Positions 9,114-63,806 of a DNA stretch of 64,000 nt are shown piece by piece; positions within the stretch are counted from its first letter, which is position 1; the number at the start of each line of letters is the position of its first letter. A program made the translations under genes and the position numbers. Below the pieces are notes generated by a model, which saw nothing but the letters and a program-made list of their open reading frames with translations, was not told the origin of the DNA and searched no databases. Source of the stretch: Candidatus Cloacimonadota bacterium (GTDB lineage Bacteria; Cloacimonadota; Cloacimonadia; JGIOTU-2). The DNA is taken from contig JBNGBT010000001.1 of NCBI GenBank assembly GCA_049903315.1, positions 64,001 to 128,000 on the forward strand. The letters are read 5' to 3'.

Positions 9114-9130
9114 TGCATTTTTTGTGCCAA
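9114..9130 (-). promoter_or_regulatory. Sigma-54 -24/-12 promoter (module copy 3)
   Basis: Minus strand TTGGCACAAAAAATGCA = GG-N10-GC. Confidence 0.85.
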
Positions 9131-9193
9131 AAGTGGAAATTTCAGCAAAGCCCTTATTTTATCGTGATTGTGTTTTATACGGGACAATTATAG

Positions 9194-9230
9194 TGTCCGC
9201 TCATGGAACAGTAGTGTACGAGAATGAACA
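9194..9230. promoter_or_regulatory. Tandem enhancer-like boxes TGT-N11-ACA / TGT-N10-ACA (module copy 3)
   Basis: tgtccgctcatggaaca-gtag-tgtacgagaatgaaca; same pattern and spacing as 28449 and 63770. Confidence 0.8.
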
Positions 9231-9308
9231 CTTTTTTGTTTTCATTTTCATAGAATTTAGTTGATTATGTTTATTTATTCTATAATATATTTTTCTTCAG
9301 GTACTCCC

Positions 9309-11720
9309 TTATTCGTATTTTATTACTTCTGCAGGATTTGTGTGTGCTGCTCGTATTGTTTGGAAACTCACAGTGAGTAACGATATTATGAGCGTGATCG
9401 CAGCAGTTACAACAAAAGAGAGTATGTCTATATCAATCCTATAAGCGAAATTCTGCAACCATTTGTTCATTACAAACCAGGCAACTGGAAAGGCAATTAT
9501 GTTTGCGACGAGTACCCATCGAGTGAATTGATGAAATAGACTGAAAGTGATCTTGCTAGCACTTGCGCCGAGAACTTTTCGTATGCCAATCTCTCTAAGT
9601 TTTTGTTGGGCGGTAAAAGTAGCCAATCCATACAACCCAAGGCACGCAATGATGATAGCGAGGAAAGAGAAAATTTTAAAGAGCATTCCTGAACGGATTT
9701 CTGCGAGGTGCAGATTGTCAAAATGTTCATCCAAGAAGAAGTACTGGAAGGGTTGATTGACCGCAAGTTCTTCCCAGAGGTTTTTGATCTGGTCCAGGGT
9801 TTGAAGGATCGTTCCAGTTTTTACTCGTACGACCATGAAGTGGTTGTAACGTGTATAGGGTGGCAGCAGTAATACATTGGGTATTTCGCGCTTGAGGGAA
9901 TCAAAATGATAATCCTCTACGATGCCAATAACATTTAAATAATCATTACTACCAGAAAAATACAGCCTTGCTCCGACCGGATTCTCCAGACCGAGATTCC
10001 TTACTGCTGTCTCATTGATCACACAGGATAAAGAATCACCCATGAAATCACGGGAGTAATATCTGCCGGCTTTTAACTCGATGCCCATTGCTTCAAGATA
10101 TTCGTAATCCCCAGCAATTTGGCGGAAATGCACCATCTCCTGCGCGGTACTGCCTTCTTTCTGCATAACACTACCATCGGAGCCAGTGCCTGGAATATGG
10201 CTTGCAATGGATGCAGCAACGACACCGGGAAATTTTGCAACCTCTTCTTTAAAGGTTCCCAGCTTATCCCGTAAACTATATGCCCGTTCAATCACAAAAA
10301 CTTGTTCCTTGTTAAATCCAAGTTTCTTGTTTTGCATATATTTTATTTGATTTGAGATTACGAGGGTACAAATTATGATGATGATCGATATGGCAAACTG
10401 GAAGAGTACTAAACCATTACGCAACCATGATCTTTTTCCCCTTTTATAAATACTTCCTTTGAGTACGGTCACGATCTTAAAAGATGAAATGACCAATGCC
10501 GAATAGATGCCTGCAACTACTCCTACAACAAGAACAATGAGTAGAGATAAAGGGATGATCTCCAAGCGATGGAAATAGTGATTCAAGGGAATGTTCGAGA
10601 GGTGAGAAAAGAATGGAAGCACCATCTGGACAATAATAATCGCAAGGATCATAGAGAATAGACTATAGGTGATAGATTCCAGAAGGAGTTGTCTGAATAT
10701 CTGCCAACGATATGAACCTACAACCTTGCGAAGTCCGATTTCTTTTGCACGGGTTGCAGCCCTGGCTGTGGTAAGGTTCATGAAGTTGATGCATGCGATC
10801 AACAAAATGAAGATGGCAATAATCGTAAAAACGATTACATAGGTCATACTACCCTGAGGACCTAGATCTTCAGTTGCTCTTGGATTCAAATAAATACTTT
10901 TTACAGGATCAAGAAAGAATTCATATCTGTTTCCCGTTTTTCCCCACTCCTCAAAACCCATACCTATATCTTGCAGAACAATAGGTTCTACATGCCGGTT
11001 GCGGAAATCTGTCAGCTTTTTTTCAAATTCTTTCCATTCAGTGCCATCCTTTAGAAGGATATAGGTTGTAAGATTATCACTCAACCAATAACCATGCTGA
11101 AAGCGTTCCACCTCAATTGTGTTTGTGATAAAGTCATATTGCCAATGTGAAGTGGGAGGTGCATCCTCTATCACGCCCACGACTTCATAATCCCAGTATC
11201 CGTCATAACTCAATATTTTTCCGATCGGTGACTCATTTCCGAAGTATTTTCGTGCAATAGATTCGGTGATGAACACAGTGTTGGGACGACTCAAGTTTTC
11301 ATCGGGATTACCTGTGATGACTGGAATGGTGAAAAGATCGAAAATCGTAGAGTCTGCATAATAAACACTATTCTCTGTATGATGAACATCACCTTCGACC
11401 CAGCTGACCAGTTTATTGATGCCTTTATAAAAACGAGCCATATTTACAACTTCCGGATAGTCCTCAACAAGTGCTGGACCCATTAATCCTGAAGATGTTG
11501 TTCCTTTGCCTTCCATGTCACCCATTTTTATATCGAGACTAACCCGATACAGATTTTCATAATGCTCATTATGTTTATCAAAACTTGTCTCATGATGAAC
11601 CCAGAGCATAATAAGAATAAAACATGCCATGCCGATTGCAAGCCCGGCAATATTCAGAAAAGCGTAGATTTTGTGGCGTTTGATATTTCGCCAGGTGAGT
11701 AACAAATACTGTATAAACAT
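9309..11720 (-). CDS. MacB/FtsX-type duplicated ABC permease
   Basis: 803 aa; INFMNLTTARAATRAKEIGLRK; REIGIRKVLGAS; ends VIKYE. Confidence 0.93.
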   Translation of the reverse strand: MFIQYLLLTWRNIKRHKIYAFLNIAGLAIGMACFILIMLWVHHETSFDKHNEHYENLYRVSLDIKMGDMEGKGTTSSGLMGPALVEDYPEVVNMARFYKGINKLVSWVEGDVHHTENSVYYADSTIFDLFTIPVITGNPDENLSRPNTVFITESIARKYFGNESPIGKILSYDGYWDYEVVGVIEDAPPTSHWQYDFITNTIEVERFQHGYWLSDNLTTYILLKDGTEWKEFEKKLTDFRNRHVEPIVLQDIGMGFEEWGKTGNRYEFFLDPVKSIYLNPRATEDLGPQGSMTYVIVFTIIAIFILLIACINFMNLTTARAATRAKEIGLRKVVGSYRWQIFRQLLLESITYSLFSMILAIIIVQMVLPFFSHLSNIPLNHYFHRLEIIPLSLLIVLVVGVVAGIYSALVISSFKIVTVLKGSIYKRGKRSWLRNGLVLFQFAISIIIIICTLVISNQIKYMQNKKLGFNKEQVFVIERAYSLRDKLGTFKEEVAKFPGVVAASIASHIPGTGSDGSVMQKEGSTAQEMVHFRQIAGDYEYLEAMGIELKAGRYYSRDFMGDSLSCVINETAVRNLGLENPVGARLYFSGSNDYLNVIGIVEDYHFDSLKREIPNVLLLPPYTRYNHFMVVRVKTGTILQTLDQIKNLWEELAVNQPFQYFFLDEHFDNLHLAEIRSGMLFKIFSFLAIIIACLGLYGLATFTAQQKLREIGIRKVLGASASKITFSLFHQFTRWVLVANIIAFPVAWFVMNKWLQNFAYRIDIDILSFVVTAAITLIISLLTVSFQTIRAAHTNPAEVIKYE

Positions 11721-11744
11721 TATACCTTCTATATAATTTATTGA

Positions 11745-12899
11745 TCAGATATTCTGAAAATGTTCTTTGACTAATTCAAAAAGATCGAATAATATGTACA
11801 TCGAATTGCCCTCTTCTGTATTATCCATAAACCCAATACAAACCTCATAATCTGGTAAATAGATACAAGCCGCAGCATAGCCAGGGGCATTTCCACTATG
11901 TCCGATTGCATTTAAATCGTTAAATAAATCTGGATTGAATTTTACTGCACCTAGCCCATATCCAGATACCATATACTCTTCACCGGTGCAAGGAGAATGG
12001 AAAGTTAACATCTGATCAAGAGATTGCTGGCTTAGTACGCCTTTATCAAAGAAAAGAGCTCGTGCCCATTTTGCCAAATCCTCGGCAGTAGAAAACACTT
12101 CACCGCCAATTCCACTTTGAAAAGCAGTTCTCGGCCATGAAAAAAAGTCATTATAAAGTCCATCGTTGTCCAAATCATACCATCCATGTGCAATATTTGC
12201 TGGGAGTGGCTCTCCCATTGAGGCAAAAGTATTATTAAGTTCGAACGGGACAAAGAAGCGATTATTATATGCTGTTGCTACATCTAAGCCGGTGATATTT
12301 TCAATAATCATACGAAGTAGAGCGTAACCAGGAATTGAAGAATAATTCCAATCAGTTCCACTGGGGAAAAGCGGCTCCTGATTAAATGCTATTATCATTT
12401 CTGCGGGTGTCCAAACTTGTGAAGGATTCTGAAATATCTCCTCCCAGAAAGCAGGATTATCTACGATATCATAAAGACCGCTGGTATGGTTGAGAAGTTG
12501 CCGGATAGTAATCGTGCTATCAACAAATGGGTATGCTGGCACCCATTCGTGAAGTGAATCATCTAGAGTAATTTCACCTTCTTCTGCAAGCTTAAGAATT
12601 GTTGCGGCGGTGAAATTCTTAACAATGCTTCCAGCACTGAACGACATGTCGGGGGTAATTTCAGTTGTTCCATGTGACACTCCGCTTACACCAGTCCACA
12701 TCTCCCCATCGGGCATGATAATAGCTGAGGAAACCCCTTTTCCAAAATATTTAATAACTCCATCGTCTAGAGCTTTTTGTAACTTTTCATAAAAAGTTAA
12801 CTCGGGTCCAGTAGCGTTTTTATTTGAACATGTGAAAAAGAATAAGACACTAATGATAAGTAAAATTATGGCTAAAGATTGTAGTTTGAAATTATTCAT
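11745..12899 (-). CDS. Serine hydrolase, beta-lactamase/D-Ala-D-Ala peptidase fold, probable lipoprotein
   Basis: SxxK (GSIVK), LLNHTSGL, YSS at the YxN position, GHSG; hydrophobic N-terminus ending FFTC. Confidence 0.85.
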   Translation of the reverse strand: MNNFKLQSLAIILLIISVLFFFTCSNKNATGPELTFYEKLQKALDDGVIKYFGKGVSSAIIMPDGEMWTGVSGVSHGTTEITPDMSFSAGSIVKNFTAATILKLAEEGEITLDDSLHEWVPAYPFVDSTITIRQLLNHTSGLYDIVDNPAFWEEIFQNPSQVWTPAEMIIAFNQEPLFPSGTDWNYSSIPGYALLRMIIENITGLDVATAYNNRFFVPFELNNTFASMGEPLPANIAHGWYDLDNDGLYNDFFSWPRTAFQSGIGGEVFSTAEDLAKWARALFFDKGVLSQQSLDQMLTFHSPCTGEEYMVSGYGLGAVKFNPDLFNDLNAIGHSGNAPGYAAACIYLPDYEVCIGFMDNTEEGNSMYILFDLFELVKEHFQNI

Positions 12900-15210
12900 A
12901 TTTAATGACCTCCGACGGATTAGTATTTGCAGCTTTAAAGGTTTGGAAACCCACTGTTAATAATGAAATGAGTAATGCAATCAATCCCGAAATGATGAAT
13001 ATCCAGAGATCAATCCCTGTTTTATACGCAAAGCCTTCCAGCCATTTTTTCATGATGATATAGGCGATCGGACTTGCAAGAATCGCCGAAAGGAGTACCC
13101 ATTTTAAGAAGTCGCCCGAAAGCAGGATAACGATCTGATGTATGGACGAGCCAAGTACTTTGCGGATACCGATTTCTCTTGTTCTTTGTTCTATCATGAA
13201 TAATGAAAGGCCAAACATGCCCATGCATGACAGGATTATTGCGAGAACAGTAAAATATCCGAATATCTTACCAAAACGAATTTCTGTCCTATAGAGCAAT
13301 GCTAAGTCGTCTTCAAGAAAAGCAATTGAAAATGGCTCAGTTGGGACAAAGTCCCTATAGGTTTTTTCAATAAATTCCAAGGTTTCATCAATGTTATAAG
13401 GAGCTAATTTTACGTTTACAATATGTGTTTCAAGAGGTGAGTTATGAACAACAATCGGTTCGATGCGATATTGTAGTTTTCTGAAAGAAAAGTCTTTCAT
13501 GATGCCTACTATCTCCAAGCCCTGAATAATATCCTGACCAATAGGATCAAGCCCCCCCCAGTCTAATTCTCTTGCTGCTGTTTCGTTTATCAGGATCGCA
13601 TTTGAGTCCGCAATGCTGTGCTTTAAGAAATCTCTTCCACGGACGATCTCAATGCCGTATGTATCAACAAAGTCTTCATCCGCAGTATAAAATTTATATG
13701 TGCCGATATCTGAACCATGCTGAAGTATCACATAGCCCAATTTTGTATAAGTATAGGAAACGGACTTGATATTGCTATTCATCAAAAGTGCATCTTTAAA
13801 CACATCCTGCTTGTCTTTGATTTCTTCTGTTTGGTTGAAATTGACGATCAGGTCTTTATCAAAACCAAGATCCTTGTGAGAAATAAAATTCAGCTGCTTG
13901 TAAATGATGATAGTTCCAATAATAAGGAATATTGCGACGACGAATTGGATGACAGTCAAAGCTTTTCGTATTACAGTACCTTTATTGCCCTTGACCTGTT
14001 CTCTTCGTAAAGCGCTGATGGGAAGTATCGAATTATAGTATATCGCTGGATATAAGCCTGCTAAGATACCTAACAGGAAAACGAAAACAAAGTAGAGTAC
14101 CACATTGATCGGAGTTACAATCGATGAGTGAATTCTAAATAAATTCTTCAATCCGGGAAAGAGTAATGAAATTATTACTAATGCGAGCAATGATGCAATA
14201 AAACAAATGACAACGGACTCACCTAAAAACTGAAACAATATATTGCTTCTTCGCGCTCCGAGTGTTTTTCTCATCCCGATCTCTTTTGCTCTTTTCGTTG
14301 CTTTTGCTGTGGATAGGTTAACAAAATTGATACATACGATAAGGATAATAAATATTCCTGAAGCAAAGAAGATTTTCACTGTTTGTTCATTGCCGTGAAG
14401 ACTATAATCAAATTTACTGTCATCAAAATATACGTCTTTGAGTGGTGAAATAAAAAAGGTTGTAACGCGTTGGTCTTCCTCTATCCAGCTTGTATGTTCG
14501 TCGTTGAGAAAGAAATCTTCCATTTTTGCCATGAACTTGGATTGATTGACATTTTCATTTACAAGCAGATAGGTCACATAGTTGCTGAAATACCACTCCT
14601 GATCATCCCATCCCCAGCTTTGAATAGTGAAATCGAAAGAAATGATGCCATCGTTAAAAACCAGCGAACTCCTTGTAGGTGGATCTTTGATAATAGCTGT
14701 TACTGTAAGACCATATTCGTCTTCAATGTCAATTATCTGCCCGATGGGATCTTCGTCGCCAAATAATTTCTTGCTGAAGGATTCGGATAATACAATTGAG
14801 TTTGGATCAGATAGTGCGGTTTGAAGATTTCCAGAAACAGCTTGAAGAGAGAAGATGTCGAAAATCGAGGGATCTGCTATACAGAATGTGCTGTTAATAG
14901 ACTCATGATTAAGAACTATATATGTTCTTAAGTAAGGATAGAGCCTGGCAGTTGTATCAATTTCCGGGATTTGTTCTTTGAGATATGCAGCAAGAGCAAG
15001 AGGTGTGACACCATATTTATCGTTTACATTTGGACGGTAGATACGTTCGTAATTTTCATTATATTTGTCAGCATTCGTTTCGTAAGATACATAGAATATT
15101 ATCAAAGAAAATACGGCGATTCCAACAGCTAAACCGATAATATTTATCAATGAGAAACTTTTATGCTTCCAGATTGTACGCAATGTCGTCTTAAGATAAT
15201 TTTTTAGCAG
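12892..15210 (-). CDS. MacB/FtsX-type duplicated ABC permease (probable CTG start)
   Basis: GGAGG-TTATT-CTG CTA AAA AAT TAT gives (M)LKNYLKTTLRTIWKHK in frame with the ORF-track protein; ends PSEVIKYE. Confidence 0.9.
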   Translation of the reverse strand: MLKNYLKTTLRTIWKHKSFSLINIIGLAVGIAVFSLIIFYVSYETNADKYNENYERIYRPNVNDKYGVTPLALAAYLKEQIPEIDTTARLYPYLRTYIVLNHESINSTFCIADPSIFDIFSLQAVSGNLQTALSDPNSIVLSESFSKKLFGDEDPIGQIIDIEDEYGLTVTAIIKDPPTRSSLVFNDGIISFDFTIQSWGWDDQEWYFSNYVTYLLVNENVNQSKFMAKMEDFFLNDEHTSWIEEDQRVTTFFISPLKDVYFDDSKFDYSLHGNEQTVKIFFASGIFIILIVCINFVNLSTAKATKRAKEIGMRKTLGARRSNILFQFLGESVVICFIASLLALVIISLLFPGLKNLFRIHSSIVTPINVVLYFVFVFLLGILAGLYPAIYYNSILPISALRREQVKGNKGTVIRKALTVIQFVVAIFLIIGTIIIYKQLNFISHKDLGFDKDLIVNFNQTEEIKDKQDVFKDALLMNSNIKSVSYTYTKLGYVILQHGSDIGTYKFYTADEDFVDTYGIEIVRGRDFLKHSIADSNAILINETAARELDWGGLDPIGQDIIQGLEIVGIMKDFSFRKLQYRIEPIVVHNSPLETHIVNVKLAPYNIDETLEFIEKTYRDFVPTEPFSIAFLEDDLALLYRTEIRFGKIFGYFTVLAIILSCMGMFGLSLFMIEQRTREIGIRKVLGSSIHQIVILLSGDFLKWVLLSAILASPIAYIIMKKWLEGFAYKTGIDLWIFIISGLIALLISLLTVGFQTFKAANTNPSEVIKYE

Positions 15211-15219
15211 AATAACCTC

Positions 15220-17547
15220 CTATTCATATTTCAGCGATTTTACCGGATTTGAATTTGCTGCTTTTATCGTTTTGAAGCTGATCGTAAGAAGAGCAATAAG
15301 CATACTCAAGAATCCAGAGATAATGAAGATGAATGGATTGATAGAAGTACTATATGCAAACCCTTGCAACCATTTGCTCATGAAATACCAGGCAGCAGGC
15401 CAAGCGATAATATTTGCGATAAATATCCATCGAACGAATTGGCGGGAAAGCAACCAGATGATACCGGTTACAGTCGATCCCATTGCTCGTCGGATTCCTA
15501 TTTCGAGTTTTTTCTGCTCTGCAAGAAAAGAGACAAGTCCGAAAAGTCCAAGACATGCAATGAAAATACCAAGTCCTGCAAATACACGGAAAAGTACACC
15601 AGCCCTGACCTCTTCTTTGTAGGTTAAATTGAAGATTTCATCAAGAAATCTGTATTCAAATGGAAAGTCGGGACATACTTCATTCCAAACTCGCTTAACT
15701 GAGCGAATTGCATCTTCTACATTAATATTTGATAGCTTAATAAGTGTAAAATAATAATAATCAGGTATGTTTACTACGATTAACGGTTCGCATTCATACG
15801 TTAGGGGAAGAGAATTGAAATTATTAATAACTCCAATTATTGTCCATCCTTCGTCACCAAATTTCAGCCCGATCGGATCCTCAACCTGCATCATTTCCAA
15901 AGCAGCTTCGTTGATAAGAACCGAATTCTCATCAGTTTTCATATCGTCCGAAAAGCTCCTTCCTTCGAGTAGTTTCAGATCAAGCGTTTCTAGGATATTT
16001 TTATCTGCAGATAAAAAAGCAAAGGCAGAACCTTCATCTGTTTGCTTACCCTCCCAGGTAATACCTCTCATAATGGACCACACTTCTGTGGGAATGCTGG
16101 AAACCCGTGAGATTTGGGAAATTCCTGATATCTGCTCGCATGACTGTTTGAATACATCAAACTTTTCATCCAGGTCTCTGTTCAATCTAAGATAGAGAAG
16201 GTTGTCTTTATTAAAACCAAGATCCTTGTTCTTCATATAATTGAGTTGCGAATAGATTATGCCCGTACCGATGATCAATGTTACAGCAAGAGTGAACTGT
16301 ATCACAACGATAACTGTTCGAAGTGAAAGCCCTTTGACAAATGAGGTCGAGCCGGATTTAAAGATCTTTGCCGGCGCAAAAGAGGAAAGAGCAAAGGCAG
16401 GATAGCTTCCGGCAATAATACCCACTCCGAATAGAATGATCGCATAGAGCTGCAAAATATTTGAATTGAAAACAGAGAATACAATTTTCCTGCCTACGAT
16501 CTGCTCGAAAATCGGAAGGGAAAGCTCTATCAAGAGGAATGATAGAATACATGCAATGAAGGTATAGATGATCGATTCACCAATGAATTGCAAGACGAGT
16601 GAACGTTTTTGTGCACCAGAGATTTTTCGCACACCCACTTCACGTGCACGTTTGGTTGCTTGTGCAGTAGCAAGATTCATAAAGTTTATGCATGCGATGA
16701 TAAGGATCAGCACAGCGATACTGATAAATATATAAATATATTTCTGAGTTGTTGGTTTACCTTCAACAGAGTACAAATGTATATTTCTTAAGGATTGCAA
16801 TCTTGCGCCGGATTGTTCCTCAAGGTTGTCCTTAAAGAGCTGATCAACTTTTGCTTGTAAAGCTTCGATGTCCGTTCCTGGTTTTGTGAGGATAAAGGTC
16901 TGCATCCAGTGTGAGTACCAATTATTATAATCTTCCATATCAGCTGCAGTATCAAGATGAAGTATGAAATTAAATTCATAGTCCGAAAGTAGTGGAATAT
17001 CTTCATACACTGCAGTGACCGGGAGCTCTTCAGAATTGTTCAGGGTAAGTATCTTCCCGATAGGGGATTTATCACCGAAATATTTTTGTGCTGAGGATCG
17101 AGAAATAGCAATAGAATGAACATCTCTGATCGGTTGTATCTTATCTCCATCTATAATACTAATCGTAAAGATATTAAAGATAGAAGGTGATGCTCGGCAC
17201 ACACCTCTCTCACGAAATACTTTATCGTCATATTTAATAATTGCTGAAGATTCATACAAATGTGTCGCATCGATCACTTCCGGATAACCATCCCGAACAG
17301 ATTGTTCAAGGGGATAGGGAGTAGAATAATTAATATTCTCCTCTCCGTTCATCGTGTAAACTTTGTTTATTCTGTAAATATCATCAATATGCTCATTGTG
17401 TGTATTGAAACTCTTCTCTTCCTGAGTGATCACAAATATCATTACTGCACAAGCGATACCGACAGCAAGCCCAATAATATTAATGAAAGAATAAATTTTA
17501 TAGCGTTTAATGTTTCTTAGGGCTGTTTTGAGATAATTTTTAAACAT
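15220..17547 (-). CDS. MacB/FtsX-type duplicated ABC permease
   Basis: 775 aa; INFMNLATAQATKRAREVGVRK; ends SNPVKSLKYE. Confidence 0.93.
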   Translation of the reverse strand: MFKNYLKTALRNIKRYKIYSFINIIGLAVGIACAVMIFVITQEEKSFNTHNEHIDDIYRINKVYTMNGEENINYSTPYPLEQSVRDGYPEVIDATHLYESSAIIKYDDKVFRERGVCRASPSIFNIFTISIIDGDKIQPIRDVHSIAISRSSAQKYFGDKSPIGKILTLNNSEELPVTAVYEDIPLLSDYEFNFILHLDTAADMEDYNNWYSHWMQTFILTKPGTDIEALQAKVDQLFKDNLEEQSGARLQSLRNIHLYSVEGKPTTQKYIYIFISIAVLILIIACINFMNLATAQATKRAREVGVRKISGAQKRSLVLQFIGESIIYTFIACILSFLLIELSLPIFEQIVGRKIVFSVFNSNILQLYAIILFGVGIIAGSYPAFALSSFAPAKIFKSGSTSFVKGLSLRTVIVVIQFTLAVTLIIGTGIIYSQLNYMKNKDLGFNKDNLLYLRLNRDLDEKFDVFKQSCEQISGISQISRVSSIPTEVWSIMRGITWEGKQTDEGSAFAFLSADKNILETLDLKLLEGRSFSDDMKTDENSVLINEAALEMMQVEDPIGLKFGDEGWTIIGVINNFNSLPLTYECEPLIVVNIPDYYYFTLIKLSNINVEDAIRSVKRVWNEVCPDFPFEYRFLDEIFNLTYKEEVRAGVLFRVFAGLGIFIACLGLFGLVSFLAEQKKLEIGIRRAMGSTVTGIIWLLSRQFVRWIFIANIIAWPAAWYFMSKWLQGFAYSTSINPFIFIISGFLSMLIALLTISFKTIKAANSNPVKSLKYE

Positions 17548-17555
17548 GAAGTTCC

Positions 17556-19967: not shown

Positions 19968-19975
19968 TAAGCCCT

Positions 19976-22369: not shown

Positions 22370-22397
22370 ATTATACTTCCTTTATGCTTATACATAT

Positions 22398-52298: not shown

Positions 52299-52306
52299 TG
52301 CCATTC

Positions 52307-54427: not shown

Positions 54428-54492
54428 TATGACTCCTTAATGCTTTTTGTACATTAACCAAGCTCCCCTTGCATAATGGAGTTTAGCTATAA

Positions 54493-55152
54493 TTAAACGA
54501 TTCTGCCGTCGAGTAGATTTATGATCCTATTTCCGTAACCGGCTTTTTCTTCCGAATGGGTTACTTGAATTATTGTCGTGCCTTCTTTGTTGAGTTTTGA
54601 AAAGAGCTCCATGATCTCTGTTCCCTGCTCGGAATTAAGATTTCCAGTCGGTTCATCGGCAAGAATGAGTGAGGGTTTGCCGGCAATTGCGCGGGCTATA
54701 CCCACAAGCTGCTGTTGTCCTCCGGAGAGTTGATAAGGGAAAAGGTCTTTTTTACCAACAATTCTGAACTTATCAAGCAGGTCGCAAACGCGTGATTTGC
54801 GCTCTTTCGCACTTTTTTTCTGGTAGAGCATTGGCAACTCGATGTTTTCATATACGGTCAGGTCATCGATAAGATGATACTGCTGAAATACAAAACCGAT
54901 TTCAACGCGATGAAGGTTTGTGCGCTGTTTCTCATTGAATTTGTGAACTGGTTGTTCCTTGTAGAAATATTCTCCGTCATTAAGTGTGTCCAGCATTCCA
55001 AGTATATAGAGCATTGTAGATTTTCCTGCTCCGGAAGGACCCATTACAGTGACGAATTCACCTTTTGCGACATCCAGGTTGATGTCATTCAATACATACG
55101 TTTTTACGAAATTATTTGAATAGAATTTGAAAGCACCCCGCAGTTGTAGCAT
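54493..55152 (-). CDS. ABC transporter ATP-binding protein (LolD/MacB type), second ATPase
   Basis: GPSGAGKS, LSGGQQQ, ILADEPTGNL, VTH. Confidence 0.95.
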   Translation of the reverse strand: MLQLRGAFKFYSNNFVKTYVLNDINLDVAKGEFVTVMGPSGAGKSTMLYILGMLDTLNDGEYFYKEQPVHKFNEKQRTNLHRVEIGFVFQQYHLIDDLTVYENIELPMLYQKKSAKERKSRVCDLLDKFRIVGKKDLFPYQLSGGQQQLVGIARAIAGKPSLILADEPTGNLNSEQGTEIMELFSKLNKEGTTIIQVTHSEEKAGYGNRIINLLDGRIV

Positions 55153-55178
55153 AGTACTCCTTAATTTAATTATTTTTT

Positions 55179-55267
55179 ACCACGAAAGTCACGAAAGAGA
55201 CGAAAGGGAATTTAAGAGAAAATACTCTTACGAAGGTTGTATCAATATTTTCGTGTATTCCGTGGTT
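55179..55267. repeat. Intergenic element with 9-bp tandem units and terminal inverted repeat
   Basis: accacgaaa-gtcacgaaa-gagacgaaa ... tttcgtgtattccgtggtt (reverse complement aaccacggaatacacgaaa). Confidence 0.7.
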
Positions 55268-55279
55268 AAGCATTTTTCT

Positions 55280-55837
55280 TTAAATGATTATTACTGAGGC
55301 ATTGTTTAGAATGTTTCTTTTGATATATTGATAGAACATTCCGATCTGCTCAATTTGTGTGTCAGCCAGATTTATCACTGCTTCATTACCATTACAAACC
55401 GCAGTGATAAGCACTTCGTCAGCATGGATGATCCTTTTAAGAAATTCATCATTTACATAGAATGAGTTTGTGTGCATAACCGAATCGTTGATGATCAATT
55501 TCTCGTCTAATTTGATGACCTTCTCTTTTGATGAGGGTATACTATAGTTATCGAGTTCCAACTGCACTGATTTCAGTTCCGCCCATGTTGAATAAAACTG
55601 AGAGCAGTCAATTGTCATTAACCATTGATAAGTTTGATCTATCCTTTTGAATTCGAGGAACATATCTGCATCACAGATAGAATCTTCGTGGAAGATATTG
55701 ATCTTCACGGGTGAGCATTGATAATAAACGGCACCTTTCCCCTCGAGTGCATCACTTTTATCTATTATCTTAAGATTTGTAGATGCACATGCGGCAAGGA
55801 GTAAAACTCCTAACGTAATTGCTATTATTTTTTTCAT
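55280..55837 (-). CDS. Hypothetical lipoprotein
   Basis: MKKIIAITLGVLLLAAC lipobox; GGAGG RBS. Confidence 0.8.
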   Translation of the reverse strand: MKKIIAITLGVLLLAACASTNLKIIDKSDALEGKGAVYYQCSPVKINIFHEDSICDADMFLEFKRIDQTYQWLMTIDCSQFYSTWAELKSVQLELDNYSIPSSKEKVIKLDEKLIINDSVMHTNSFYVNDEFLKRIIHADEVLITAVCNGNEAVINLADTQIEQIGMFYQYIKRNILNNASVIII

Positions 55838-55855
55838 GAGACCTCCAAGCTATAT

Positions 55856-56149
55856 TTAGCATATAGCTTCCTGTGTACCATCCGGGTACATTATTTTCTT
55901 TTTTCTGAACATGATGGGGATCTTCTCTTTGTCGGGTGCACCGATTTGGATAAGCTCCCAATCCTTATCATAATCGTGAATGACTTTCCGCAGTACATTC
56001 ACTACTTCTTCTGAGCTTGCATTTGGATCTTCCCATTCCACAAGCTCGACGCGGTAGCACAGAGTTTTTTTCTTTCCATTGATGCGAACTTCGATCTCAA
56101 GATTTTGCTGTGCTTCCAATGTTGGTATATTTAATACTATTTCGCGCAT
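55856..56149 (-). CDS. Hypothetical small cytoplasmic protein (97 aa)
   Basis: Strong GGAGG RBS; globular composition; co-oriented in the operon. Confidence 0.75.
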   Translation of the reverse strand: MREIVLNIPTLEAQQNLEIEVRINGKKKTLCYRVELVEWEDPNASSEEVVNVLRKVIHDYDKDWELIQIGAPDKEKIPIMFRKKKIMYPDGTQEAIC

Positions 56150-56880
56150 ATGAACCTCCCGTTATTCATTATGCTAATCATCGTGTGATTGCTATCTGAT
56201 AACAATATGTTGTTTTTAAGTGTTACATGTGTAAGACTCTCCCGGGACCAGCCCCCAAGCTGTTCTTTGCCTGATAATTTAAAAGGGGCGATAAAGCTGA
56301 GATCAAGAGATGAATTCCGCGGATTGTTTTCAACAAGTCCGGTTATGGTAAAATCTGATCTGTTGTGTACATTCACCACTTTTCCGCTTGGATATTCATC
56401 ACTCAAATATAGCTCCGCTGTTTCTCTTGTGATCACGTGAGAGTGCAGCACGTGAAGCGCTCTTGCTTCGTCGCCCTTGATAAATGGATACGAGAACATT
56501 TTTAAGAGGACTGGTTCAGCCAGGAAGAGACGGTTATTGGAAAAATATGTATATTTATTTGAAATTTTAACTCCATTAAATGTATAAAATCTCAAATAAT
56601 GATTATATTTGTGAAATGTAACTTCTAAAATGGGTGCAGGACTATAAGGAACTTTTAGATTACCATATAGTTCATCTTGGTTGACAAAATAATCCTGATC
56701 GTTACAGGAGAGATTGTTCTTTTTTTCGAGCAATTGTGCAGAGTACAATTCACCCCGCACCCATGATAGAAGAAGGATGCATACGACCATTCCTATGGCC
56801 AATTCCAATTTATTGATGGAGGAAAATCTTTTATATCGCACTTTGTTTCGCGTCGGTGTTTTTAAATAATATTTGGTCAT
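56137..56880 (-). pseudogene. Truncated, degenerate permease N-terminal third
   Basis: MTKYYLKTPTRNKVRYKRFSSINKLELAIGMVVCILLLSWVRGEL...KMFSYPFIKGD...FTITGLVENNPRNSS; lacks the FtsX TM domains. Confidence 0.75.
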
Positions 56881-56881
56881 C

Positions 56882-59242
56882 TTATTCATATCTCATAGAC
56901 TCAGAGGGATTTCTGAGTGCAGCCCGAAGCGTTTGGAAGCTTATCGTTATGATTGCAATAAGCAAGCTGAGAATGCCTGCAAAAATAAAATATGTTATAT
57001 GAAAAGGTATCTTATAAACGAAAGTATTCAGCCATCTGGACATTGCAAGATAGGCAATAGGCCATGCGAGGACATTTGCAATAAGAACCCATTTAACAGA
57101 TTCTTCAGTTAAAAGAAGGACTATGTTCTTTACAGAAGCTCCCATGACCTTGCGAATACCGATCTCTCGTGTCCTTCGAGCTGTCATATAGGATATCAGA
57201 CCAAAAAGACCAAGGCAGGAGATCAGGATCGCCATTATAGTGAAGTAATTGAAAATAGTGAGCATTCTTTTCTCAGCACGGTAGAGATTGCCATATGTTT
57301 CATCCATAAATGAATATTCAAGAGGAGTATCGGGATTGATGTCATTCCAAATATTCTTGATCTGTGCAAGAGTGCCGTCGATATCTTCAGTACTAAGGCG
57401 GACAAAACTTACATATGCTTGAGAAGAGAGACTGATAAAGAGAGGTTCTATCTCAGTTTGCAGTTTCTTGAAATGAAAATCTTTAACCACTCCAATAATA
57501 TTATATGGTTTATTGTTTTGGTAATGATCAGTAACTTGTTCAGAGAGGGGGTCGTCAAATCCCATCAATGCCACAGCTGTTTCATTAACTATGATTGCAG
57601 AAGAATCGGTGGGCATATCAGGGGAGAATGCGCGCCCTTCTGCAAGTTCTATATCAAGGGTTTTGAAAAAGTCATAATCAACACGAAGCTGGTGCACGAG
57701 TACTCTTTCATCGTCTTGTTTTGTGCGCCAATCATAGCCATACCCGGAATTGACTATACTATATGGATATGCAGAACCTCTGCTCACATTAATTACTTGA
57801 GGAAGTTTAAGAAGCTCATGCTTCAGGGTTGTGTAATTTTCAGATGTTTGATCTCTGAAAGAGAAATTCAGCACCTGTTCTTTTGTATATCCGAGTTCCT
57901 TATTATGCACAAACTGTACCTGTTTGAACACGATAATTGTACCAATAATCAAGATAATTGTGATCACAAATTGGAGAATAACGAGTATTCTTCTAAAGAG
58001 TACGCCCTTCTTCCCAGCTTTGAGTATGCCCTTCAGCACGTTGATTGGTTTGAAACTTGAAAGTACGAATGCGGGATAGCTGCCGGCAAAAATACCGGTA
58101 AAAAGAGTAACTGCAAAAAGGAATACATATATCAATGGATCCTGACCGGAGAAGAATGAGAGTTCCTTCCCTGCGATATTATTAAATAAAGGAAGTAATA
58201 ATTCTACTATAACTATTGAAAAGAATAAAGAGATAAGGGAGAGGATAATTGCTTCTCCGAGAAATTGTCTGACAAGCGTATTCTTTTGTGATCCTACTAC
58301 TTTTTTGATGCCAACTTCTCGAGCCCTATTTTCTGCACGTGCAGTAGCAAGGTTCATGAAATTGATGCATGCAATAACAAGCACGAAAAGGGCGATCAAT
58401 GAGAACAGACGCACATAAAGTATATCTCCATGACCTCCAATGTCTGCAACATAATGAGAATGCAAATGAATGTCTGTGAGAGGTTGCAGGTTCAGTTTCA
58501 CAGGATAACCAACATCATGTGCTGCCAGATATCCTTCTATCTTTTCATCAAATTCAATCCAATCCACATTTTCTTCTAATTGGATGTACGTATAATAGGA
58601 GTTGGAGCCCCAGGATTCTAAATTTCCACCGAAATTTTTTAATACTTCAAAAGCCACAACATAATCAAATTTCAGGTGTGAATTATCAGCTACATTATGA
58701 AAAACTCCAGTCACATTCAGGATGGTGGAGGTATTTACCTGCAGCGTTTTCCCAATTGGATTTTCATCTCCAAAGAATTTATGAGCCATTTCTTCGGAAA
58801 TTACTACATTTAAAAGCTCATCAAACATAGTTTCTTTATCACCAGCTATTATGGGAAAAGTAAACATTTCAAAGAAGTTGGGATCAGCCAAAGTTATGTT
58901 CGCCTTGAACTTATCTTCCCCAATGTTGATATAACCAAAACCGTAGGTTTGGAATCTAGTAAAATTGATCACTTCCGGAAAATCCTGCAGCATTCCAGGT
59001 CCCAAGGCTGCTGGTGTTACAGCTACTGGAAATGGTTCACCTGATTGTTCCTGCATTTCCACCACACGAAATATCCTGTGAGCATTTGCATGGAAACGAT
59101 CAAAACTCAACTCATGATGCACCCAAAGGAATATAAGGATACAGCATGCGAGTCCAATCGAAAGACCGAGAATATTGATAAATGAATGCCCTTTGTGACG
59201 TTTAATATTTCGAAGAGTGATGAGTATTGAATTTTTAAACAT
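56882..59242 (-). CDS. MacB/FtsX-type duplicated ABC permease
   Basis: 786 aa; INFMNLATARAENRAREVGIKK; ends MRYE. Confidence 0.93.
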   Translation of the reverse strand: MFKNSILITLRNIKRHKGHSFINILGLSIGLACCILIFLWVHHELSFDRFHANAHRIFRVVEMQEQSGEPFPVAVTPAALGPGMLQDFPEVINFTRFQTYGFGYINIGEDKFKANITLADPNFFEMFTFPIIAGDKETMFDELLNVVISEEMAHKFFGDENPIGKTLQVNTSTILNVTGVFHNVADNSHLKFDYVVAFEVLKNFGGNLESWGSNSYYTYIQLEENVDWIEFDEKIEGYLAAHDVGYPVKLNLQPLTDIHLHSHYVADIGGHGDILYVRLFSLIALFVLVIACINFMNLATARAENRAREVGIKKVVGSQKNTLVRQFLGEAIILSLISLFFSIVIVELLLPLFNNIAGKELSFFSGQDPLIYVFLFAVTLFTGIFAGSYPAFVLSSFKPINVLKGILKAGKKGVLFRRILVILQFVITIILIIGTIIVFKQVQFVHNKELGYTKEQVLNFSFRDQTSENYTTLKHELLKLPQVINVSRGSAYPYSIVNSGYGYDWRTKQDDERVLVHQLRVDYDFFKTLDIELAEGRAFSPDMPTDSSAIIVNETAVALMGFDDPLSEQVTDHYQNNKPYNIIGVVKDFHFKKLQTEIEPLFISLSSQAYVSFVRLSTEDIDGTLAQIKNIWNDINPDTPLEYSFMDETYGNLYRAEKRMLTIFNYFTIMAILISCLGLFGLISYMTARRTREIGIRKVMGASVKNIVLLLTEESVKWVLIANVLAWPIAYLAMSRWLNTFVYKIPFHITYFIFAGILSLLIAIITISFQTLRAALRNPSESMRYE

Positions 59243-59250
59243 AATTTATC

Positions 59251-61671
59251 CTATTCATATTTAAGGGTAATAGAAGGATTGGTTTTTGATGCTTTGAGAG
59301 ACTGGAAAAGAACTGTAAGTATCGCTATAAGGAAAGCGATTATACCAGATAATACAAAGGTCAAGATCGAAAGTTGTGTTCTATACGCAAAGTTTGCCAG
59401 CCAGTTTTTCAGAGCAAAATATGCAACGGGCCACGCAATAACGTTCGCAAGAAGCACCCATTTTGTAAAAGTCTTGGAGAGCAATCCGACAATATTCTGT
59501 GAGCTTGCACCAAGTACTTTGCGAATGCCGATCTCACGTGTGCGCTGTTCGGTCGTATATGAAGCGAGACCAAACAGACCAAGGCATGCAATGAGGATGC
59601 TCAAGAGTGAAAATATCGTGAATATCTTTGCTAGTTTCTGCTCGGGAATATAATATTCATTTAATATATCATCGAGGAATTCATATTCAAATGGAAATTC
59701 CGGCATGAAGTTTTCCCAGGTTTCTCGCACAAAGCTCAATACCTCCTGCATATTATCAGGATTGTATTTCAGCACAATGCTGGTTTTAGGGAAATTTGTG
59801 GAGAATATTGTGATAGGAGCTACTTGATTATGAAGGGATTCGTAATTAAAGTCTTTCACCACACCGATCACTTCGCCGTCAAAAAGTGCGGTTCCGTCAT
59901 CTCTCAAACCAAGTAAAACTCGTTTACCAAGAGCGTTCTCACCCCACCCCATTTCCTTTACGGCTGCTTCATTCACTATAACTGCTTTTTGCATATCAGA
60001 AGCTAGACTGTCTGAGAAATTTCTTCCTTGCAGTATCTCCATGTGCATAAGACCAATAAAGTTTGCATCTGCAACAAAAAGGTTGAGTGGTTTCTCTGTC
60101 ATGCCCTCTTCAGCTTCAAGGCGCATTAAGAGTTTTCCGGTTATTCTCCCGGGAACACTAGTTGTGATAGCCGTTGAAAGTACATCAGGATGTTTTGCCA
60201 TCTCATCTCTGATGGTTGCCATATTCTGAACTGCGGTGGTATCCTGAACCGAGAGTACGAGCACATTTTCTTTATCAAAACCCAGGTCTTTGTTCTGAAT
60301 GTAATGAAGCTGTCTTGAGACAGTGAGAGTGCCAATGAGCATAATGATTGTGATCGCAAACTGGATCAGCACAAGAACTTTACGGAGCGTGCCACCTCCT
60401 TTACCACTCTTGATGCTGCCCTTAAGAACAGTGACCGGTTTGAAGGCAGAAAGATAAAGCGCTGGATAGCTTCCTGAGATAAATCCAACAACAATAGTTG
60501 CCAGCAGAATGTACAATATCAGTATGGGATTTTGTCCTATATCAAAGGAAATATCCACGCCCGAAATTTGGTTGAATGCAGGAATAAGCAGATAAGTTGC
60601 GATCAGGGCAATGATAAGTGAGAGGAAAGCCAGGAACACCGATTCTGAAAGGAACTGACGTATGAGCAAACCCTTTGCCGCACCTGCAACTTTGCGGATG
60701 CCTACTTCACGAGCTCGTTTTACAGACCGGGCTGTGGCAAGGTTCATGTAGTTGATGCACGCGATTATCAGAATGAAAACGGCTACAAAGATAAAGATGA
60801 ACATATAAGACGTGTTACCTGTCGGAAAGTCATACTGCATGTCACCAAGAAAATGAGTGTCTTTTATCGGAGTGAGACGTATATTCATACTCGTATTGAT
60901 ACGATCTCCCAGCTCCTTCATGTACTTGTCATAGAATTGCTGAAACTTGTCCAGCACTGCCTGCGGATTTGTATTCTCACCAAGTTTTATGTATGAGTAC
61001 ACACTGATATTCCAGAAGCCGTTAGTTGCAGTAGAATTATAATTATCAACTCCCATGAGTTCACGAAGAGTAGTCATTGAAGTGAGCATTTCAAAGTTTA
61101 CATGCGTATTATCAGGAAGATCTTTGATGATAGCAGTCACACGGAATGTCAGTCCATTACCTGCAATAATGGTTTCACCAATAGGATGTATGTCTCCGAA
61201 TATCTTTTCTGCAAAACTCTCTGTCAGTACTGCAGTGAAGGGTTCGGAGAGTGCAGTTGCAGGATCTCCATGTACAAATTCATATGAAAAGAGATCAAAA
61301 ACTGTGGAGTCTGCGAGGTACACATCATCCTCATAGATCTTTTTCTCATCATAAATGAAAAGCCGATTCTGCATGAATCGTAATCTTGTGGCTTCTTCTA
61401 TCTCCGGAATCTCTGCTTTCATGGTATGAACGAGAGGGAATGCAGTCAAAGCGAACTTATCCAACTTTCCCTGAACCGTGAACATCGATTCAACCCGATA
61501 GATGCGATCAGCATCCTTGTGAAATGTGTCATAAGAGAACTCATGCTGTACATAGAGTCCAATGAGCATAGCACACGTAATGCCGATCGCAAGTCCAACG
61601 ATATTGATTGCGGAATAGAACTTATTCCGGGCAATATTTCTGTAAGCTATCTTCAAGTAATTCTTCAGCAT
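59251..61671 (-). CDS. MacB/FtsX-type duplicated ABC permease (first of array)
   Basis: 806 aa; INYMNLATARSVKRAREVGIRK; RTREIGIRKVLGAS; ends LKYE. Confidence 0.94.
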   Translation of the reverse strand: MLKNYLKIAYRNIARNKFYSAINIVGLAIGITCAMLIGLYVQHEFSYDTFHKDADRIYRVESMFTVQGKLDKFALTAFPLVHTMKAEIPEIEEATRLRFMQNRLFIYDEKKIYEDDVYLADSTVFDLFSYEFVHGDPATALSEPFTAVLTESFAEKIFGDIHPIGETIIAGNGLTFRVTAIIKDLPDNTHVNFEMLTSMTTLRELMGVDNYNSTATNGFWNISVYSYIKLGENTNPQAVLDKFQQFYDKYMKELGDRINTSMNIRLTPIKDTHFLGDMQYDFPTGNTSYMFIFIFVAVFILIIACINYMNLATARSVKRAREVGIRKVAGAAKGLLIRQFLSESVFLAFLSLIIALIATYLLIPAFNQISGVDISFDIGQNPILILYILLATIVVGFISGSYPALYLSAFKPVTVLKGSIKSGKGGGTLRKVLVLIQFAITIIMLIGTLTVSRQLHYIQNKDLGFDKENVLVLSVQDTTAVQNMATIRDEMAKHPDVLSTAITTSVPGRITGKLLMRLEAEEGMTEKPLNLFVADANFIGLMHMEILQGRNFSDSLASDMQKAVIVNEAAVKEMGWGENALGKRVLLGLRDDGTALFDGEVIGVVKDFNYESLHNQVAPITIFSTNFPKTSIVLKYNPDNMQEVLSFVRETWENFMPEFPFEYEFLDDILNEYYIPEQKLAKIFTIFSLLSILIACLGLFGLASYTTEQRTREIGIRKVLGASSQNIVGLLSKTFTKWVLLANVIAWPVAYFALKNWLANFAYRTQLSILTFVLSGIIAFLIAILTVLFQSLKASKTNPSITLKYE

Positions 61672-61703
61672 CCGTTATCCTCCTGGATTTTTTTTAAGAG
61701 AGT

Positions 61704-62390
61704 CTAGAGGAGTTTGCGAATGTTTTCTGTGACGATATGACCATCAAAGAGCTGAATGGTCCTGTGACTGTACTCTGCGTCAGAGGGAGAGTGTGTCACC
61801 ATAATAATGGTTGTGCCTTCCTCATTCAATTGCGAGAGAAGATCCATGACTTCTTCTCCGTTTGCAGAGTCCAGGTTACCTGTGGGCTCGTCTGCGAGAA
61901 TCAGGCGGGGATTTGTCACTACTGCGCGCGCAACTGCAACGCGCTGTTGCTGACCACCTGATAACTGCTGAGGAAAGTGGCTTTTACGATGCATGATCTT
62001 CATACGATCAAGCACTTCTTCGACTTTTTTCTTACGAATTGCCGAAGACATTTTGAGATAAAGAAGGGGAAGTTCGACGTTTTCCCAGACAGTGAGTTCA
62101 TCGATCAGATTGAAGCTCTGAAATATGAACCCAATATTGCCTTTTCTAAGATTGGTGCGACTACGTTCTTTGTACCCGGCGACCTCCTCGCCCATGAATT
62201 CATATGTGCCTTCAGAAGGATTGTCCAGTAATCCCAATATGTTGAGAAGTGTGGATTTTCCACATCCTGAAGGTCCCATGATGGCTACGAATTCCCCTTC
62301 TTTTACATCAAGGTTTACCTTGTTGAGTGCTGTTGTTTCGACTTCGTCTGTACGATAGACCTTCATTAGTTCATTTGTTTTGATCATCAT
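61704..62390 (-). CDS. ABC transporter ATP-binding protein (LolD/MacB type)
   Basis: GPSGCGKS, LSGGQQQR, ILADEPTGNLD, VTH. Confidence 0.96.
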   Translation of the reverse strand: MMIKTNELMKVYRTDEVETTALNKVNLDVKEGEFVAIMGPSGCGKSTLLNILGLLDNPSEGTYEFMGEEVAGYKERSRTNLRKGNIGFIFQSFNLIDELTVWENVELPLLYLKMSSAIRKKKVEEVLDRMKIMHRKSHFPQQLSGGQQQRVAVARAVVTNPRLILADEPTGNLDSANGEEVMDLLSQLNEEGTTIIMVTHSPSDAEYSHRTIQLFDGHIVTENIRKLL

Positions 62391-62396
62391 TACTCC

Positions 62397-63662
62397 TTAT
62401 TGATTATCTTTTTTCTTTAAAATTAACACATCGACATCACCAAAGGTTTCGTAGCTGGAAACGATCACCTGTTCCCCTTCTTCGACACCTTCGATAACTT
62501 CATAATATTTAGGATTATATCTATTTAATCTTATATCTCTTTTATATGCTGTGTTGCCTGATTCATCCACCACAAAGATCCATTGACCGCCGGTGCTTTG
62601 ATAGAATCCACCGCGTGGGATAAGAAGTGATTCTTTTGGAGCCCCAAGCTCAAGCTTGATCCTGAAAGTTTGCCCGATACGCATATTATGAGGAAGTCCA
62701 TCTATGAATTCCATATCGATTGAGAATTGCCCATTACGCACCTCGGGGTAGATTTTGGTTACTTCCAATTTATAGGTGTTGTTAGAATATTCAAATTCAC
62801 CGAGAAGACCTCTCTGAACTCTTGAAATATAGTGTTCATCAATTTGGGCATTAATTTTATATGAATCAAGCACATTTATTTGCCCAAGCCTTTGACCTGC
62901 ACCCTTGGATTCACCGATCTCTGCATTTAAAGAAGCGAGCTGTCCATTTACAGGAGCGCGAACATCAAGACTCTCCAGGTTTTTACGGACAAGATTGAGA
63001 TTATCTTCCATTCTACGAACTGATTCCTCAAGCTGGCCTATCTGTACGTCGCGGAAAAGTGAGTCCTGCTTCTGTGATTCGATGAGAAGGTCTTTTTTTG
63101 TCACAAGATATTCATAATACTCTTTTGCATTCTGAAACTCATCTTTAGATCTGAAATTTTGTTTATAAAGTTCTTGAACCTGCTCGTACTCCCTTTTTGC
63201 CTGTATGATCGCATAGTTGATTTCAATAAGCTGACTCTTGAGATCGAGTTTGTTCTGCTCCATGAGAAGGCGTGTGTTTCGCAGGGTATTGATCTGCTCC
63301 GCCAGGCTTGCTTCTCTATTCATGATGCTGAGATGAAGATTTGTATTGCTAAGACGGAGAATTATATCTCCTTCCTTCACCATTGCGCCTTCTTCGATCA
63401 GGATTTCCTCGACCTGCCCGCCTTCAAGGGCGTCAATATACACAGTACGTATTGGCTCCACCGTGCCGGTGTTTGTAATGTAATCCTGGAAATAACCCAT
63501 CTCAACTGAAGCGATAGTGAGACGCTCTTCCTGTACGCGCAGTTTGGAGCTTTTATCTGCGAGAATTATATAGTATAATATCAGCAGAATAAATACTCCT
63601 CCGGCTGCGACCCAAAGAATTTTTTTCAGTGGCCACTTCTTTTTTTCAATTAATCTATCCAT
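62397..63662 (-). CDS. HlyD/MacA-family periplasmic adaptor (membrane fusion protein)
   Basis: MDRLIEKKKW start after GAGG; one TM; GGQVEEILIEEGAMVKEGD lipoyl half, long helical hairpin, VRAPVNG. Confidence 0.92.
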   Translation of the reverse strand: MDRLIEKKKWPLKKILWVAAGGVFILLILYYIILADKSSKLRVQEERLTIASVEMGYFQDYITNTGTVEPIRTVYIDALEGGQVEEILIEEGAMVKEGDIILRLSNTNLHLSIMNREASLAEQINTLRNTRLLMEQNKLDLKSQLIEINYAIIQAKREYEQVQELYKQNFRSKDEFQNAKEYYEYLVTKKDLLIESQKQDSLFRDVQIGQLEESVRRMEDNLNLVRKNLESLDVRAPVNGQLASLNAEIGESKGAGQRLGQINVLDSYKINAQIDEHYISRVQRGLLGEFEYSNNTYKLEVTKIYPEVRNGQFSIDMEFIDGLPHNMRIGQTFRIKLELGAPKESLLIPRGGFYQSTGGQWIFVVDESGNTAYKRDIRLNRYNPKYYEVIEGVEEGEQVIVSSYETFGDVDVLILKKKDNQ

Positions 63663-63689
63663 GTATGCACCTCTCTTGTGTTTTTTCAA

Positions 63690-63706
63690 TGCAGTTTTTG
63701 TGCCAA
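63690..63706 (-). promoter_or_regulatory. Sigma-54 -24/-12 promoter (module copy 1, head of operon)
   Basis: Minus strand TTGGCACAAAAACTGCA = GG-N10-GC. Confidence 0.87.
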
Positions 63707-63769
63707 AAATAAAAAATTCGGCAAATCCTTTATTTGAGAGCGGTTATGTTTTTTGTGCGAATTACAAAC

Positions 63770-63806
63770 TGTCCGCTCGCGAAACACGGGTGTACGATAA
63801 CGTACA
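63770..63806. promoter_or_regulatory. Tandem enhancer-like boxes (module copy 1)
   Basis: tgtccgctcgcgaaaca-cggg-tgtacgataacgtaca. Confidence 0.8.

Follow-up and report, generated by a model that had tools for sequence, protein, structure and literature searches.

Sigma-54 enhancer-promoters such as those of NtrC at glnAp2 and NifA at nifH join a GG-N10-GC promoter element to paired upstream sites for an AAA+ activator, and the consensus of the NifA site is TGT-N10-ACA. Here we describe a module of this kind in the genome of a Candidatus Cloacimonadota bacterium, where it was found three times, always on the minus strand, along a run of ABC-exporter genes of ~76 kb; the window analysed is a stretch of 64,000 nucleotides (nt) of contig JBNGBT010000001.1 (assembly GCA_049903315.1, positions 64,001 to 128,000 of the forward strand). 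Sequence comparison leads us to propose, with a probability of about 0.78, that the three homologous copies are the sigma-54 enhancer-promoters of the adjacent NtrC-family two-component regulator and would start transcription of the array at its head and at two internal points. The layout agrees with general descriptions of sigma-54 enhancer-promoters (PMC4641369, PMC7910581) and with the canonical examples in its GG-N10-GC element, its paired inverted repeats ~90–130 bp before the predicted start and the adjacent two-component AAA+ activator, and it may also share a bending site in between. Unlike the canonical examples, it has tandem TGTWCG-N4-CGWACA boxes of its own, an activator loop reading GSFTDA or GAFTDA, ABC-exporter rather than nitrogen targets, and three copies in one co-directional array. 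The promoter architecture as such is a textbook kind of switch and would not surprise a specialist.

Several described systems share parts of this circuit. Enrichment of predicted sigma-54 promoters has been reported for COG0577 (FtsX-like) permeases in Bacteroidia and Opitutia (PMC12316311). That study concerns the same transporter class; the parts of it available to us stop at promoter enrichment, naming no activator family or box sequence and describing neither a rule for spacing nor internal copies, and the string 'Cloacimon' is absent from its main text. Internal sigma-54 promoters occur in Myxococcus xanthus operons under Nla28, each yielding mRNA for a subset of the genes (PMC7910581), which resembles the present case in that activator-dependent sigma-54 promoters lie inside long gene clusters; in the sections available, however, the Nla28 promoters are mostly intragenic with direct-repeat half-sites, whereas those described here are intergenic, homologous to the head promoter and of fixed geometry. 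In BceRS-BceAB, too, a two-helix kinase with a short outside linker has an ABC transporter of the FtsX fold as its neighbour and likely induces it (PMC11009047). Judged against the portion of that source at hand, our locus, from a diderm host, differs in that its regulator is a sigma-54 AAA+ protein, its kinase shows a weak match to a cytoplasmic PAS domain and an adaptor protein is encoded. Its permeases each have two domains in the periplasm (two MacB_PCD and two FtsX matches) and so differ from the ten-helix BceB with its one extracytoplasmic domain. On the transporter side, the array is like MacAB-TolC, the ADOP-like duplicated permeases (TIGR03434) and DarBCD in combining an adaptor, a separate ATPase and permeases with two MacB_PCD and two FtsX domains. 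It is unlike them in having 24 permeases for one adaptor and two ATPases, in scores below the ADOP and DarB cut-offs (for ADOP, 317.9 and 279.3 against 622.3 in the 2 of 24 permeases scanned), and in the absence of a TolC gene from the locus, OEP genes being located on contigs C1, C7, C33, C55 and C66.

Our literature search turned up no account of the activator family, of its box or of arrays like this one, and no experimental study of this widespread circuit; the per-genome supplements of PMC12316311 may list such operons. Indirect for this locus are mapped start sites of Bacteroides thetaiotaomicron with TTGGCAY at -26/-25, including that of a TolC gene beside a response regulator, and, equally indirect for this circuit, the start site of BT_1530, found among 60 of the 132 rows with TTGGCAC or TTGGCAT (PMC7366714, in the part available). 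In the papers found, sigma-54 control of MacB-like exporters has so far only been predicted from promoter scans. The locus offers a rule for the binding site and its spacing that is precise and testable and applies to a widespread family of regulators of MacB-like exporters in Bacteroidota, Cloacimonadota and allied phyla. This rule allows regulons to be read off in hundreds of genomes, with cultured carriers including Labilibaculum and Carboxylicivirga, and the triplication is a natural case for how very long operons stay expressed.

Three copies of a predicted promoter module

The motif TTGGCACAAAAA(A/C)TGCA was found without mismatch on the minus strand at 63690-63706 (P1), 28369-28385 (P2) and 9114-9130 (P3), with predicted starts at ~63678, ~28357 and ~9102. 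P1 heads the array and has orthologues in G002, G003 and G008, other members of the genus (the window's own genome, of 2.96 Mb and 96% complete, is G000), while P2 and P3 are internal and have positional orthologues in G003 and G002, respectively. Read 5' to 3' in the direction of transcription, each module spans 117 bp: the distal box (16 bp) and the proximal box (17 bp) lie 4 nt apart, and after the proximal box come 64 nt and then TGGCACAAAAA(A/C)TGCA, giving the pattern TGT-N10-ACA, N4, TGT-N11-ACA, 64 nt and TGGCAC. All three copies have the -24 GG and -12 GC with 10 nt between them in a TGGCAC...TGCW context. The tandem boxes, also on the minus strand, occupy 63770..63806 at P1, with a distal palindrome at 63791-63806 (TGTACG-N4-CGTACA) and the proximal box at 63770-63786; they occupy 28449..28485 at P2 and 9194..9230 at P3, both with a weaker distal box whose left half is TGTTCA. 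A sequence-only reading of the window had claimed two exact offsets from the upstream G of the -24 GG (plus-strand positions 63704, 28383 and 9128), and both were confirmed: TTATTT starts at +26 and TGT-N11-ACA-N4-TGT-N10-ACA at +66, identically in 3/3 copies.

The same reading had named these as the only three large intergenic gaps with the pattern, and genome-wide scans found no further copy. The tandem-box pattern alone has 3 matches in 5.9 million strand positions (both strands), all within the three modules, against 0.39 expected from single-box frequencies, and model and pattern scans found no module in the other array gaps longer than 100 bp, at 47413-47565 and 55153-55279. The full composite pattern occurs 3 times, with ~7e-10 expected for one occurrence; because this pattern was read off the same data, a held-out model provides the fairer test. 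A three-part model was built from 79 loci (L004-L082) around relatives of the regulator, with the window and its nearest relative excluded. It finds modules in 55 of the 79 training loci and has the consensus TGTtCG-N4-CGtAC, 4-5 nt, TgtttCg-N4-CGaACA, spacer, TTGGCAt-N6-TG. When the own genome was scanned with it, a matrix scan of genome and relatives having been proposed earlier, the three copies ranked first at 51.3, 50.0 and 43.5 bits, followed by a site at 17.9 bits, and modules recur at the loci of the relatives.

The adjacent regulator

Divergent from the array head, on the plus strand, starts the gene of a 458-aa NtrC-family response regulator (63950..64000), which together with the gene of a 453-aa kinase extends past the window end. 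Its product has a receiver, a sigma-54 AAA+ domain and a Fis-type helix-turn-helix, as matched by profiles (receiver, Sigma54_activat, HTH_8), and its closest named relative is a Candidatus Celaenobacter record, 95% identical, which makes it likely that the cloacimonadotal host belongs to that genus. The activator loop is GSFTDA; among 80 relatives, 61 have GAFTDA and 13 have GSFTDA. The genome also contains rpoN (C33:35085-35543, E 9.5e-49), which sigma-54 promoters presuppose, and ~10 matches to sigma-54 activators. At the level of sequence, the earlier proposal is thus far supported in three respects: an activator site upstream of sigma-54 promoters, a single activator next to them, and promoters that lie inside a co-directional array.

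What did not stand was its description of the boxes as NifA-type. The distal box, and only the distal box, fits the NifA consensus TGT-N10-ACA. The inner CG pairs of the box consensus, TGTWCG-N4-CGWACA, are among its most conserved letters, and the half-sites are not specific to NifA, TGT...ACA half-sites being common to several unrelated activator groups in Desulfovibrio (PMC4641369). No nitrogenase component was matched in the 96%-complete genome, the adjacent activator has a receiver domain and scores 309 against the NifA cut-off of 528.85, and the genes downstream are exporters. That the boxes are NifA upstream activator sequences is therefore extremely improbable.

Related loci

We compared 80 loci with the closest relatives of the regulator, sorting their exporter linkage by eye. 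A looser scan detected at least one module in 62 of the 80. Among loci with a neighbouring adaptor, ATPase or permease gene, 61 of 68 had the module, compared with 0 of 8 where no exporter gene was adjacent; the remaining 4 were too short to judge. In three loci (L064, L067 and L068) it stays before the adaptor gene where the exporter operon has moved or become separated from the regulator 5' end. Autoregulation was considered as the role of the boxes and rejected because the module goes with the adaptor gene and not with the regulator start. Within the genus, adaptor gene and module co-occur in the same 3 of 10 genomes.

Multiple copies are not confined to our window. A second forward copy lies within a few kb, after the ATPase, in 11 of the 80 regulator loci, and 26 of 61 matching Bacteroidales genomes have 2-5 copies. 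Since the exact patterns used on genomes recover 36 and 41 of 63 known modules and so miss many, these genome tallies are lower bounds; reversed-pattern controls gave 0 matches in 232 and in 301 genomes. Long arrays with internal copies were absent from five other Cloacimonadota genomes, each of which has a one- or two-permease operon and at most one module in the stretch fetched, and the long array looks like an expansion in this genus. Exporter genes follow 19 of 26 Cloacimonadota matches. Other genes found downstream encode S46 or C25 peptidases, CBM9-like proteins and unrelated products.

At L139, L145, L147, L104, L089 and L122, the module precedes S46/C25 peptidase and CBM9-like genes, a hint that the regulon has to do with the envelope or with peptides outside the cell.

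Spacer geometry

The distance from proximal box to promoter falls into two classes. It was searched over 40-90 nt, and four reverse reads were dropped from 67 matches before counting; of the 63 forward modules, 8 were at 53-55 nt, 55 at 63-67 and none at 56-62. Another 26 Cloacimonadota matches divided into 17 at 53-55 and 9 at 63-65, and a Bacteroidales-centred order sample, with 98 matches in 61 of 301 genomes, gave total lengths of 93-101 in 20 cases, 105-111 in 78 and 102-104 in none; one module had a spacing of 76. The classes of ~54 and ~65 nt, one helical turn (~11 bp) apart, would fit face-of-helix looping, and the activator sites upstream of the promoter are conserved, in helical phase, within about 80-150 bp. 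By the same data, the base-exact spacing that the sequence-only reading had singled out as a special feature was over-read. The spacing is 63-65 within the genus, with the G003 copies at 63 and 65, and three draws from the long class agree with a probability of 0.33. Given the shared ancestry of the three copies and the narrow range allowed in all relatives, their equal spacing is unsurprising.

Within the spacer, the TTATTT segment, which reads AAATAA in the direction of transcription, had been suggested as a possible DNA-bending site, which is plausible. The spacers of relatives contain a positioned TAA...CAG-N4-TTA signal similar to the IHF consensus, with 20 of 55 within one mismatch and 12 of these at one position, compared to a mean of 6.6 and a maximum of 15 in shuffled controls. 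In the window, the best match to an IHF-like site lies 9 nt further upstream than in the relatives and overlaps AAATAA. The segments at P1 (63722..63735, minus strand) and P3 (9146..9159, minus strand) are IHF-like 13-mers with one mismatch, and the one at P2 (28401..28414, minus strand) matches poorly. The genome has two genes of the HU/IHF family.

Predicted internal promoters

P2 and P3 lie within a tightly packed co-directional array. The P2 orthologue in G003 stands between the same two genes, and the P3 orthologue in G002 before the same permease. Spacer identity to the orthologue is 24/64 for the P2 pair and 38/64 for the P3 pair, with boxes, promoter and length kept; that the spacers drifted while these elements did not argues for purifying selection. 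The three G000 spacers share 29-40 of 64 positions among themselves, versus a mean of ~22 (maximum 29.5) against 54 distant spacers, and because of this greater resemblance P1–P3 likely derive from one module in this lineage. Triplication of the units as blocks was rejected as their origin, since permeases are 27-43% identical to one another whether they come from the same unit or from different ones, and a quick tree does not recover the units as clades. P2 and P3 would rather be old copies of the head module, dating from the ancestry of the genus, kept by selection and lying outside any triplicated gene block.

The internal copies are not equivalent to the head copy. The distal half-site is TGTACG in 4/4 head copies of the genus and TGTTCA in 4/4 internal copies, and the distal box scores 20.9 bits at P1 versus 10.4 and 9.9 at the internal copies. 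Scores of about half could mean that the internal copies were a by-product of duplication and are now decaying, with P1 alone functional; in G003, moreover, no module precedes the gene region orthologous to that at 9309 or lies in the fetched stretch that matches the end of unit 2, the P3 region being off that contig. We regard such decay as very unlikely, because orthologous internal copies have kept their boxes, their -24/-12 element and their spacer length despite spacer divergence, because TGTTCA is the same in the orthologues, and because P2 and P3 surpass P1 in their -24/-12 score (21.4 vs 18.5). Taking the internal boxes as weaker but maintained, we infer a graded rather than an all-at-once response, in which P1, with its perfect distal palindrome, is predicted to respond at lower activator levels than P2 and P3.

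A less probable but serious possibility is that P2 and P3 work, yet head separate sub-operons derived from once free-standing permease cassettes, with P1 transcripts falling short of them and no booster role. The module does stand directly before permease genes away from the adaptor operon in 8 of 26 other Cloacimonadota and 4 of 30 Bacteroidales loci, gene order differs among G000, G002, G003 and G008, and a transcript from P1 would probably end or be degraded before it had covered the 35 kb to P2. However, only 36 nt at P2 and 78 nt at P3 separate the upstream stop from the boxes, a scan blind to Rho-dependent termination found no minus-strand terminator-like hairpin before either, and the likeness of the P1–P3 spacers points to copying within the lineage.

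Points against the assignment

Besides the blind spot of the terminator scan, several observations count against our assignment of the three copies to the adjacent regulator and the array. Seven of the 68 exporter-linked loci have no module in the looser scan, and the loci are related, so that the counts above are not independent trials. Exporter genes follow only 14 of 30 fetched Bacteroidales matches; because many of the others precede S46 peptidases or unrelated genes, the motif is either not exporter-specific or common to paralogous activators. Both G003 copies lack AAATAA and the IHF-like match. The loop GSFTDA departs from GAFTGA at two positions; a G-to-D change at one of them, as in NorR G266D, leaves NorR active (PMC2941729, in the part available). 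Finally, two other sigma-54 motifs in the genome, one of them beside another activator, have similar single upstream boxes, at 16-17 bits with the distal-box matrix.

These last sites, at C11:202005 and C22:305352, bear on whether the boxes are recognised, exclusively or through cross-talk, by a different one of the ~10 activators, for example that at C22:306269. Similarity of motifs need not track similarity of DNA-binding domains (PMC4641369, in the part available), and single palindromes like the distal box do stand upstream of both motifs, but their boxes are 80-90 bp apart and not in tandem. The tandem module, by contrast, tracks the family of the adjacent regulator; 59 of the 80 relatives match the recognition helix of that family, LGLTRTSLYR. 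Reading by another activator thus appears quite improbable, and we retain the adjacent regulator as the likely ligand of the boxes.

On this assignment, the two-helix membrane kinase would phosphorylate the regulator upon an envelope-related cue. Hydropathy shows two hydrophobic helices near the N-terminus of the kinase, joined by a very short outside linker, a layout that looks the same by eye in the 72 relatives listed. Because the kinase also matches PAS weakly (E 0.017; seen at E up to 0.05 in 26 of 57 relatives), its signal may instead come from the cytoplasm. Two regulator dimers would then bind the adjacent TGTWCG-N4-CGWACA boxes, two helical turns apart, and assemble the AAA+ ring, as their co-conservation suggests. 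The DNA would loop, probably with help from IHF or HU, and bring the ring to the sigma-54 polymerase on the correct face of the helix, which is what the 54- and 65-nt classes lead one to expect. P2 and P3 would re-initiate transcription for the distal permeases, which may use the adaptor and ATPases of unit 1.

Gene content

The window is a minus-strand array with one periplasmic adaptor, two ABC ATPases and duplicated MacB_PCD/FtsX permeases, and so holds a MacAB-TolC-type set of adaptor, ABC ATPase and permease. Unit 1 (28522..63662, minus strand) begins after P1 with the only adaptor gene of the array, of the HlyD/RND-MFP type (62397..63662, minus strand), and includes both ATPase genes (61704..62390 and 54493..55152, minus strand) and 10 intact duplicated MacB/FtsX permeases, as well as one split permease, one N-terminal permease fragment, an ankyrin protein, a lipase-like protein and a DUF6144 protein. 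Unit 2 (9309..28314, minus strand) has 7 duplicated permeases and 2 serine hydrolases of the beta-lactamase fold. The part of unit 3 in the window (1..8926, minus strand) has 3 permeases and a further one spanning the window start, beyond which follow 2 more permeases and genes for secreted proteins. Units 2 and 3 have neither adaptor nor ATPase gene. In all, the array contains 24 permeases, one of them split (48 FtsX matches), each with two MacB_PCD and two FtsX matches. The unit sizes given by the sequence-only reading were right for the first two (35.3 kb and 19.3 kb), while the third, put at over 9 kb, is at least ~21.6 kb: the packed run extends beyond the window start and, with no gap longer than 43 bp, reaches at least C11:51518, ~76 kb from the head.

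A bolder and rather doubtful extension would make the whole ~76 kb a single sigma-54 super-operon. In it, 24 divergent permeases would share the adaptor and the two ATPases, graded relay promoters would recruit distal sets at rising signal, and the loop-less kinase would read permease activity. The system would then parallel Bce flux sensing in a Gram-negative cell, wired through sigma-54 and with a multiplexed repertoire of sensors.

Minor features

The split permease (34126-36514, minus strand) consists of open reading frames of 507 and 275 aa, and its G003 orthologue is an intact reading frame of 795 aa; this could be a real break or an assembly error. The N-terminal fragment (56137-56889, minus strand; 250 aa) recurs in G003 and G008. 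It is followed by a 97-aa protein (55856-56149, minus strand) without a Pfam or NCBIfam match, which recurs in many Bacteroidales loci, often directly after a second promoter module. At the permease at 12892-15183 (minus strand), there is no ATG at the expected start and the frame opens on CTG/TTG codons.

The gap at 55153-55279 forms a long imperfect hairpin (-26.6 kcal/mol), with similar short stretches elsewhere in the genome, and looks like an inserted repeat because it measures only ~10 nt in G008. The P3 leader is 177 nt long, and 8927-9100 (minus strand) contains an open reading frame of 35 codons; its G002 counterpart, of 39 codons and hydrophobic, is in a different frame of similar sequence and is possibly the remnant of a secreted-protein gene.

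A TTGACA at 63823-63828 (plus strand), 16 nt past the P1 distal box, is kept in 4/4 members of the genus. No -10 partner for it passed our scan; it is a possible -35 element of the divergent regulator-kinase operon, in which case it would permit autoregulation.

Other sigma-54 motifs of G000 belong to different sets. Those at C22:30275, C22:147744 and C44:156767 have a common upstream TGCGGAATTAATTCAGCA and form a second activator regulon. The motifs at C11:202005 and C22:305352 each have two widely spaced TGTTCG-N4-CGA(T/C)CA-like boxes and probably make up a third, that of the activator at C22:306269.

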